DNA of 64,000 nt from Prorocentrum cordatum (lineage: Eukaryota): positions 1-64,000 of the forward strand of contig CAUYUJ010000119.1 in assembly GCA_963575745.1 (NCBI GenBank). The letters are read 5' to 3'. The position numbers were made by a program, and so were the translations under genes. Positions 1,914 through 2,726 of this stretch are shown in pieces. The stretch's first letter is position 1, and the number at the start of each line of letters is the position of its first letter. The notes beneath the pieces are model-generated. The model was not told the DNA's origin. It ran no database searches and worked only from the letters and a program-made list of their open reading frames with translations.

Positions 1914-2726
1914 ATGGCGCGCCTCGCTCTGGCGCTCCTGCTTCTGCTGTCCACGCGGGCGCTGGCGGACGAGAATTGCGTCGCCGACGGCGCGTGCCAG
2001 GATGACGAGGCCGAGACGTCCGCTCTGCTGCAGGCCAAGGTGGCCGGGAGCAGCGACGAGAACGTCACCGCCGAGGCGCTCGGCTGCCAGAAGCAGATGC
2101 AGAAGTGCGGCGTGTGGAAGGGGATGGGCCTGGGCTCCTGCTGCAAAGGTTTCTCGTGCTGTGAGGCAACGCTTGTAAAATCAGCGCCTCCCGTATGCAG
2201 AGAGAAGTGCCTTAAGGGAGGGAACAGCGCCGACAGCGGCGAGGGGAAGATTCCTGGAAAGAAAGGTAAAGGTCGCGGCGCTGCGTTGCTGCAGGCCGAG
2301 GCGACCGATGCATTCGACCTTGCCGAGGCCGCCGAGGCCGGGGCAAAGTCGTCCAGCGTGGCCGAGGCTGCTGAGGCAAGTTATGAGGCGGACGAGGCCT
2401 CCGCCAGGGAGGCAGACGAGGCGGGAGAGGCGGACGCGGCCGAGACTGCTGATGCAGCTGACGAGGCGGGCGAGGGGTCAGACGAGACGGCGGGCGAGGC
2501 GGACGAGGCGGACGAGGTGGGCGAGCAATCGGACGAGGTGGGCGAGGAGCAGCAGCAGTACGAGGCCTACGACGACGGGGCAAACGAGGACGAGTACTAC
2601 TCGGACGAGGCGGACGAGGAGCAGCAGCAATACGAGGCCTCCGTCGACGGGGCAAACGATACGGACGAGGCCTCGGACGAGGCGGAAACTGACCAAGCAG
2701 CCGACGAGCCCATGGTAGAGGAGTAG
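1914..2726 (+). CDS. Secreted precursor protein (270 aa): signal peptide, ALLQ pro-segment, 8-Cys knottin-like module, acidic repeat tail; probable retrogene
   Basis: ATG at 1914 (aacATGG) is in frame with ORF 1206..2726. Signal-like MARLALALLLLLSTRALA; C-x6-C-x10-CC-x4-CC-x11-C-x3-C at 2085-2210; two ALLQ motifs; D/E/A-rich tail with a duplicated EEQQQYEA; GC3-rich codons; no intron; SL relic upstream. Confidence 0.8.
   Translation: MARLALALLLLLSTRALADENCVADGACQDDEAETSALLQAKVAGSSDENVTAEALGCQKQMQKCGVWKGMGLGSCCKGFSCCEATLVKSAPPVCREKCLKGGNSADSGEGKIPGKKGKGRGAALLQAEATDAFDLAEAAEAGAKSSSVAEAAEASYEADEASAREADEAGEADAAETADAADEAGEGSDETAGEADEADEVGEQSDEVGEEQQQYEAYDDGANEDEYYSDEADEEQQQYEASVDGANDTDEASDEAETDQAADEPMVEE

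Follow-up and report, generated by a model that had tools for sequence, protein, structure and literature searches.

What does the open reading frame at positions 1914 to 2726 encode: a disulfide-rich peptide that a dinoflagellate frees from a precursor, a protein of its wall or mucus, or nothing of use to the cell? The frame lies in a window of 64,000 nucleotides (the whole stretch of Prorocentrum cordatum DNA analysed here), and the original prediction read it as the precursor of a secreted, knottin-like peptide. The translation contained the parts on which that reading had been built, namely a signal-peptide layout, a pro-region closing with ETSALLQ at residue 40, a 42-amino acid cysteine module at exactly the predicted place, the basic linker GKKGKGRG, a second AALLQ, and a long acidic tail (Table 1). 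The interpretation that the prediction placed on these parts found partial support.

The N terminus reads MAR, LALALLLLLS, and TRALA, followed by DE, with a Kyte-Doolittle maximum of 3.36 over nine residues. It fits the −3/−1 rule, the classical criterion of signal-peptide layout, and we infer that the signal peptide would be removed after Ala18 (ALA/DE). Cysteines occupy residues 22, 28, 58, 65, 76, 77, 82, 83, 95, and 99; the module is spaced C-x6-C-x10-CC-x4-CC-x11-C-x3-C, and the two further cysteines of the pro-region, C22 and C28, had not been mentioned before. The net charge is +7 over residues 41 to 122 as compared to −54 over the tail, which consists of tandem repeats (78 nt x2, 72 nt x2.3, and 9 nt x13). 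The protein contains two copies of ALLQ, while 0.011 would be expected from its composition. We also considered plastid targeting by the N terminus. Transit peptides are not strongly acidic, and because the stretch after the signal peptide is (net −7), this reading was rejected.

Table 1. Positions of the retrocopy and of the parts of its precursor protein in the window.
Feature	Positions	Strand	Details
Left copy of 19-nt target-site duplication (CACGATGGGGAGAGGCTCC)	1804-1822	+	17/19 identical to 3038-3056
Spliced-leader relic, 22 nt	1824-1845	+	1 mismatch in 21 nt searched (1825-1845)
Collinear RNA cover	1851-3037	+	single 1187-nt poly(A)-RNA-library contig X1, 2 differences, 0 gaps
ORF	1914-2726	+	270 codons plus stop; translation
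Predicted signal peptide, residues 1-18	1914-1967	+	hydrophobicity; leader common to 24/25 relatives
Acidic pro-region, residues 19-40	1968-2033	+	C22-x5-C28 loop, then ALLQ (2022-2033)
Spacer, residues 41-57, with N-V-T sequon	2034-2084	+	read from translation
8-Cys knottin-like module, residues 58-99	2085-2210	+	family alignment, predicted model, structure comparisons
Basic Gly/Lys linker, residues 100-122	2211-2279	+	net +4 for 99-122
Second ALLQ, residues 124-127	2283-2294	+	GKKGKGRG-AALLQ at 116-127
Polyacidic repeat-built tail, residues 128-270	2295-2723	+	net −54; tandem repeats
A-rich remnant AAGAAGAA, retrocopy 3' end	3030-3037	+	read from sequence; RNA contig X1 stops at 3037
Right copy of target-site duplication (CAGGATGGGGAAAGGCTCC)	3038-3056	+	17/19 identical to 1804-1822

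An intronless, transcribed retrocopy

We found that the gene is an intronless, transcribed dinoflagellate retrocopy, an aspect absent from the original prediction. The relic leader, the 19-nt duplication, and the A-rich end together bear the mark of a capped, polyadenylated mRNA that underwent LINE-mediated retroposition. The left copy of the duplication stops one base before the relic, and the right copy adjoins AAGAAGAA. A duplication score of 17/19 was reached in 1 of 2000 shuffles and in 5 of 2000 random pairs of real 60-nt stretches. The dinoflagellate spliced-leader motif, located at 1825-1845 here, gave three matches in the 64-kb window versus none in 100 shuffles. Retrogenes with relic spliced leaders were reportedly described as "mRNA recycling" by Slamovits and Keeling in 2008; the present gene has the same relic, lack of introns, flanking duplication, and A-rich 3' end as such dinoflagellate retrogenes and is an ordinary example of them, with nothing unusual about it. 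The leader itself, DinoSL, is described in PMC11453091, where retroposition of capped, polyadenylated mRNA is presented as a common dinoflagellate route and a normal source of working genes.

Further spliced-leader-like relics were detected at 20545-20565 (+ strand, 3 mismatches) and 50727-50747 (− strand, 2 mismatches), which suggests that the window holds more retrocopies. In two relatives of the protein, P0002 and P0005, the residues before the start methionine resemble a translated leader (LAQAWLK… and …PVAQFGSS…), and P0005 aligned by tblastn with the 5' UTR of the window gene from 1827 onward. Judged from back-translation, both relatives seem to carry leader relics as well.

The neighbourhood of the gene is retrotransposon-rich, with ORFs matching RVT_1 at 29330-32425 (+ strand, E 1.6e-9) and 34523-40207 (+ strand, E 6.3e-14). 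The 2794-amino acid ORF at 51899-60283 gave no Pfam match. Upstream of the gene, 1069-1441 is a microsatellite-like tract whose different frames give poly-Leu, poly-Thr, or poly-Val, and 1511-1560 is a short high-copy repeat, found in dozens of contigs of two runs with a summed depth of 366 to 1106, many with unlike flanks.

As the original prediction had anticipated, the locus is represented in poly(A) RNA. The stretch was present in 20 of 24 listed runs, eight of which are poly(A) RNA libraries from three studies, and the contigs of four runs, three of them RNA libraries, were compared with the window. Contig X1 was collinear with the window over its 1187 nt; thus, the gene has no intron, and an intron within the AT-rich patch described below was rejected on the same grounds. 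The end of X1 coincides with that of the retrocopy (3037). In the other two RNA libraries, the ORF was covered in pieces, and none of the three had contig cover of the flanks at 1601-1801 and 3075-3400. X1 starts at 1851, right after a CAG (1848-1850) that may be a trans-splice acceptor, contigs being of a kind that cannot show RNA ends. The ATG at 1914 is the first and only one between the leader relic and the ORF. A single RNA-library contig skips 372 nt in frame (2305-2678) and yields a 146-amino acid form, in which 124 tail codons are gone while the leader, module, linker, AALLQ, and last 15 residues are kept. An allele or a paralogue may account for it, as may an assembly slip within the repeats.

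The predicted AT-richness at third codon positions in the second half of the module was also borne out, as GC3 amounted to 0.91 in codons 1-56, 1.00 in codons 57-76, and 0.50 in codons 77-100. The AT-rich patch spans codons 77-122 (2142-2279) and stops at the second ALLQ, and a 46-codon window as poor in GC3 was obtained in 26 of 20000 shuffles. The DNA following the two LLQ sites is repeated (2026-2046 versus 2287-2307, 18/21 identical), and the stretches encoding DENCVAD (1968-1987) and DENVTAE (2055-2074) are alike at 15 of 20 nucleotides. The patch and the repeated ALLQ-site DNA may reflect a mosaic origin through recombination between family members.

These features could also describe a chimeric retrocopy of young age that has no function of its own and is transcribed only through kept or gained signals, and in which the eight-cysteine pattern, the AT-rich patch, and the acidic repeats are products of drift. 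Besides the hallmarks of retroposition and the two RVT_1 ORFs nearby, such an origin would account for the composition of codons 77-122 and for the expansion and length variation of the tail repeats. Furthermore, no close orthologue combining module and tail was found among 1.84 billion representatives, and the exact protein is missing from a collection of 15 billion. The distribution of variants among the RNA contigs can be read both ways: none fell within 1914-2210, that is, in leader or module, while seven fell within 2211-2726, and five of these seven coding variants were non-synonymous. However, the 270-codon ORF is intact, the number of cysteines is even (8 in the module and 10 in total), overall GC3 is 0.80, the short-tail form stays in frame, and near-identical RNA contigs came from three studies of different years. 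Dinoflagellates moreover normally make working genes by retrocopying (PMC11453091). We thus regard a retrocopy without function as quite improbable.

A conserved leader in front of varied cargoes

Profile searches retrieved 25 relatives, some of them annotated in Prorocentrum cordatum. Six reached E 0.001 among the 1.84 billion representatives, all anchored at residues 1-46 to 1-88, and in searches with the single sequence the relatives matched the N terminus only. In 24 of the 25, this leader consists of M-A-R-x-A-L-A, a Leu-rich core, and A-R-A-L-A, followed by D-E-G-C-A-A-D-G-T-C-Q-A-D-E-A-E-x-S-A-L-L-Q. Among 11 sequences, C22, D25, G26, C28, D31, E34, and A37 to Q40 were invariant. The 1914-2726 protein carries the same pattern, M-A-R-x-A-L-A...A-R-A-L-A-D-E-G-C-x5-C...A-L-L-Q, and the relatives possess an N-x-T sequon at the position of its N-V-T in the spacer.

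The paralogues fit the original expectation of a conserved signal and ALLQ leader combined with different cysteine-rich cargo. At least five unrelated cargo types stand behind the leader. They include a 10-Cys domain followed by Pro/Thr linkers, one to three small cysteine modules, and a CYMYCC domain at the C terminus; very small peptides that are dense in Cys and hypervariable in the middle (P0018-P0021); 6-Cys units repeated on E-T-G-V-A-A-L-V-Q links (P0024 and P0026); and a pectin-acetylesterase (PAE)-family enzyme, P0023 (PF03283, E 2e-72). In addition, the cargo of P0006 occurs behind a different N terminus in P0025. With respect to the very small peptides, we observed a cassette-like arrangement, in which constant ends …VGCGPFDLGCECTGK and …SSCDVRCCCDGP flank the Cys-dense middle. 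Apart from the PAE match in P0023, Pfam recognized no family above its cut-off in the whole protein, its relatives, or the isolated modules.

Conotoxin superfamilies join a conserved pre-pro region to hypervariable cysteine-rich mature regions, the arrangement named by the original prediction. We evaluated it here from protein identities rather than dN/dS. Among 13 paralogues, the mean pairwise identity was 0.76 for the pro-region, 0.68 for the signal, 0.61 for the 10-Cys "A" domain, 0.58 for the spacer, and 0.47 for the last small (knottin-type) module. The gradient from pro-region to module therefore agrees with the prediction, while the toxin-specific meaning attached to it does not hold: because the same leader is also found on multi-domain proteins and on a PAE-family enzyme, it is better described as a general secretory or sorting leader than as a toxin-specific pre-pro region. 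A strongly conserved pre-pro region with hypervariable cysteine-rich mature regions is likewise reported for mussel MgCRP-I (PMC4558851). The dinoflagellate family differs from both superfamilies in the breadth of its cargo, in belonging to a unicellular alga, and in having an ALLQ junction instead of a dibasic one.

On the strength of these alignments, the relatives form a previously undescribed, lineage-specific family, in which a single conserved leader is placed on varied cysteine-rich cargoes. A full-text literature search returned nothing on dinoflagellate knottins or on the ALLQ leader; the knottin papers found were not about dinoflagellates. Using five family proteins as tblastn queries, we detected no second family gene in the 64-kb window. 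One match at 47890-48108 (E 0.007) corresponded to a Pro-rich low-complexity frame and was discarded as a family gene. Two scans of metagenome contigs with alignments of the family picked up 382 and 505 stretches that fit the pattern, of which none was confirmed.

The cysteine module: descent and predicted fold

The module of the 1914-2726 protein is 24 to 36% identical to eight family modules, and four core cysteines and two glycines (six columns) were invariant in 9/9 aligned modules. The invariance of these columns indicates that the cysteine pattern was inherited rather than arrived at by chance. The family 6-Cys module follows C-x6-C-x12-CC-x4-C-x13-C, with the order C-C-CC-C-C; its commonest form is C-x6-C-G-x-W-G-S-T-G-x3-G-x-CC-x-G-L-x-C-x13-C, and in several paralogues the last module ends with an added C-x3-C. 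The window module has both features and one extra cysteine (CC at 82-83), which makes two cysteines more than in the 6-Cys form, and its first loop is shorter by two residues. It was found with P0004 as a tblastn query at E 0.047 and 45% identity. Judged from this alignment, the 8-Cys module descends from the family 6-Cys module and is not an import.

Structure prediction agreed with the knottin-like fold originally proposed, at moderate confidence. AlphaFold, run with 13 aligned sequences, modelled the module with a pLDDT of 76 to 81 and four short strands, while confidence elsewhere was low. Foldseek returned nothing at E 0.001; its best row was a funnel-web toxin (E 0.19), and the list consisted mostly of cystine-knot toxins, IGFBP N-domains, Dickkopf, or colipase, with three CBM1 entries. 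In an exhaustive structural scan of 48161 chains, 40 reached a Z of at least 2, nearly all of them cystine-knot peptides, and the best was purotoxin-1 (Z 3.7, rmsd 2.0, 35/35 residues). A second comparison gave Z 4.0 for IGFBP-5, 3.0-3.7 for toxins, and 2.4-2.8 for CBM1, with differences under 1 counting as ties. The best superpositions (Z 3.7-4.0) covered whole small chains at an rmsd of 1.9 to 2.3, and all Z values were at or below 4.0, which is below significance. The model of paralogue P0011 was poor (mean pLDDT 53.2) outside one module and yielded no assignment for its 10-Cys "A" domain and C-terminal domain; the module itself gave the same structure list.

Sequence echoes pointed the same way, toward toxins, none being significant: Pfam Toxin_7 (E 0.26-0.27) and Toxin_12 (E 0.63), the PDB entries Ms11a and psalmotoxin (E 0.43-7.2), and spider-toxin clusters in a protein atlas (0.75-0.78, under the bar of that tool). 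Both the sequence and the structure matches are partly driven by cysteine spacing. The whole 270-amino acid protein had no Pfam family, and residues 1-125 no PDB sequence match, at E up to 10. The module is thus probably a small cystine-knot-type beta domain, with moderate confidence as predicted from the model.

Would this likeness reflect true homology with animal cystine-knot toxins such as the conotoxin I-superfamily or spider ICK peptides, by descent or transfer? Framework XI of conotoxins is C-C-CC-CC-C-C. The module indeed has this pattern, as the original prediction stated; no significant sequence relation to conotoxins followed for the signal, the pro-region, or the mature peptide. 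The family 6-Cys module has the classical C-C-CC-C-C framework shared by inhibitor cystine knot peptides (spider toxins, sea-anemone Ms11a, and sponge asteropsins), its CC-x-G-L-x-C stretch aligns with Ms11a and psalmotoxin, and the predicted fold aligns over whole toxins at an rmsd of 2.0 to 2.5. In contrast, the loops of the family are longer (x10-12 and x11-13), the knot topology is a presumed one, and no sequence match comes near significance (best E 0.26). Neither the leader nor the precursor layout is related to its counterpart in animal toxins, the nearest relatives of the module are dinoflagellate modules, and no significant profile match or linking intermediates were found. Homology is therefore very improbable; convergence toward a common mini-fold accounts for the resemblance.

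The main rival starts from the cellulose-binding module CBM1, which the original prediction had named as its alternative. Here, the product would be an unprocessed matrix protein of wall or mucus, whose CBM1-like module anchors the polyanionic tail to the cellulose theca or mucilage, while ALLQ would be part of a conserved helical pro-segment. The start motif of CBM1 is QCGG-x-G, which the QCG-x-W-G-S-T-G of the family resembles, and the two are alike in size and in their small beta fold. Paralogues string their modules on Pro/Thr-rich linkers, as happens with CBM1 in fungal cellulases; the leader is shared with a member of a wall-polysaccharide esterase family (PAE), and two paralogues bear the source name "Cellulase". 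CBM1 chains superposed over 36/36 residues at an rmsd of 2.2 to 2.3 (7yhf, Z 2.8; 1azj, Z 2.4), tied with the toxins. CBM1 is also described on dinoflagellate GH7 cellulases (PMC10438907).

However, five whole proteins and nine isolated modules had no match to Pfam CBM_1 (PF00734) up to E 10, and at the same limit a search of 177635 PDB sequences with the family profile brought up no chain of CBM1. The flat face of CBM1 is made of three aromatics, including one before QCGG and one near the C terminus. Judged from sequence, 9/9 family modules lack an aromatic both ahead of QCG and close to the last cysteine; the only common aromatic is a W at module position 14, and the window module has lost the second aromatic position via its two-residue gap. 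The family modules also differ from CBM1 in having more cysteines. The CBM1-like alternative thus stands as a structural tie and falls short as a family assignment, in line with the lack of a confident match to any ordinary structural or CBM family. An unprocessed wall or mucus protein is possible but on balance unlikely. Membership of the module in toxins or CBM1 is established for neither; its fold class is probably cystine-knot-like.

Candidate processing and role

The reading that we favor, tentatively and with somewhat less than an even chance, is that the expressed retrogene encodes a precursor that is cut at its ALLQ junctions and frees a cationic knottin-like peptide, stored together with an anionic propiece. 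Sorting and/or folding would be the task of the acidic pro-region and its small disulfide loop. An endoprotease would then cut at or beside the two ALLQ junctions and free a peptide of about 80 residues (41-122) with a four-disulfide module, while the polyacidic tail would mask or condense this basic peptide during transport and storage. Once released, possibly through extrusive organelles, the peptide might act outside the cell as an antimicrobial, anti-grazer, or prey-directed agent.

Proteolytic release draws mainly on the distribution of the motif. In 24 of 25 relatives the leader ends with AL[LV]Q, and the motif recurs at a second domain border in three proteins, after the module in the 1914-2726 protein and between the repeats in P0024 and P0026. 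Because it marks borders in unrelated cargo, its most plausible meaning is that of a junction signal, in the simplest case a cleavage site, and its recurrence in these three sequences fits the original suggestion that xLLQ motifs may be processing sites. The complementary charges of peptide and tail would also count in favor of release. Several observations count against it: the ALLQ junctions have no dibasic sites, and the leader is not reserved for small released peptides, as it is also present on an enzyme and on large multi-domain proteins. Fair conservation extends to the spacer and its N-x-T sequon, so the mature N terminus may be elsewhere. A charge of −54 is far above the need for masking +7, and a form without most of the tail exists.

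We know of no protease for ALLQ. In regulated secretory organelles of alveolates, aspartyl proteases are reported to process the cargo at short hydrophobic motifs with Glu/Gln-type residues after them (PMC9804387; PMC4142616), and apicomplexan plasmepsin X is described as cutting SFhE after Phe (PMC9804387). The general shape of S-A-L-L-Q is similar to the sites assigned in these accounts to Tetrahymena mucocyst CTH3 and plasmepsin IX/X, purely by analogy, with the plasmepsin motif's P1 Phe replaced by Leu.

As to layout, the closest precedents are precursors with conserved flanks, a variable mature part, and an acidic C-terminal domain (PMC4695807; PMC3922462). In those of thionins and class II plant defensins, the acidic domain is linked to toxicity masking and sorting (PMC4695807). 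The 1914-2726 protein shares with them the three-part layout of a signal, a basic 6-8-Cys domain, and an acidic domain behind it. It differs in being unrelated in sequence, in its extra N-terminal pro-region, in a repeat-built tail of ~143 residues as compared to 33 amino acids in the defensins described there, and in a predicted fold that is knottin-like rather than thionin or CS-alpha-beta.

The known toxins of dinoflagellates are, to our knowledge, polyketides. A bolder, venom-like extension, to which we assign only a small chance, is that the conserved leader, sorting and processing by way of its acidic disulfide loop and ALLQ, would route enzymes of wall or mucus and a diversifying repertoire of peptides, knottin-type or otherwise Cys-dense, to extrusive organelles, where an alveolate-type maturase would cut ALLQ, and that cationic knottins freed with mucus traps would disable prey or microbes. 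Capture of prey with mucus traps is described for species of the Prorocentrum group (PMC13768824).

Dinoflagellate secreted proteins are, as far as we know, almost unexplored, and we know of no protein components of extrusome and mucus-trap contents. The leader offers a handle with which secreted cysteine-rich proteins can be listed in genomes and metatranscriptomes, antibodies raised, and the destination of the proteins traced, and the cassette-like pattern of P0018-P0021 merits a separate study. If the ALLQ junctions are cut, they would represent a new processing signal in alveolates. Were the venom-like extension true, dinoflagellates would gain their first described arsenal of gene-encoded peptides. 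If bioactive, the freed module would bring peptides into the chemical ecology of a bloom-forming genus.
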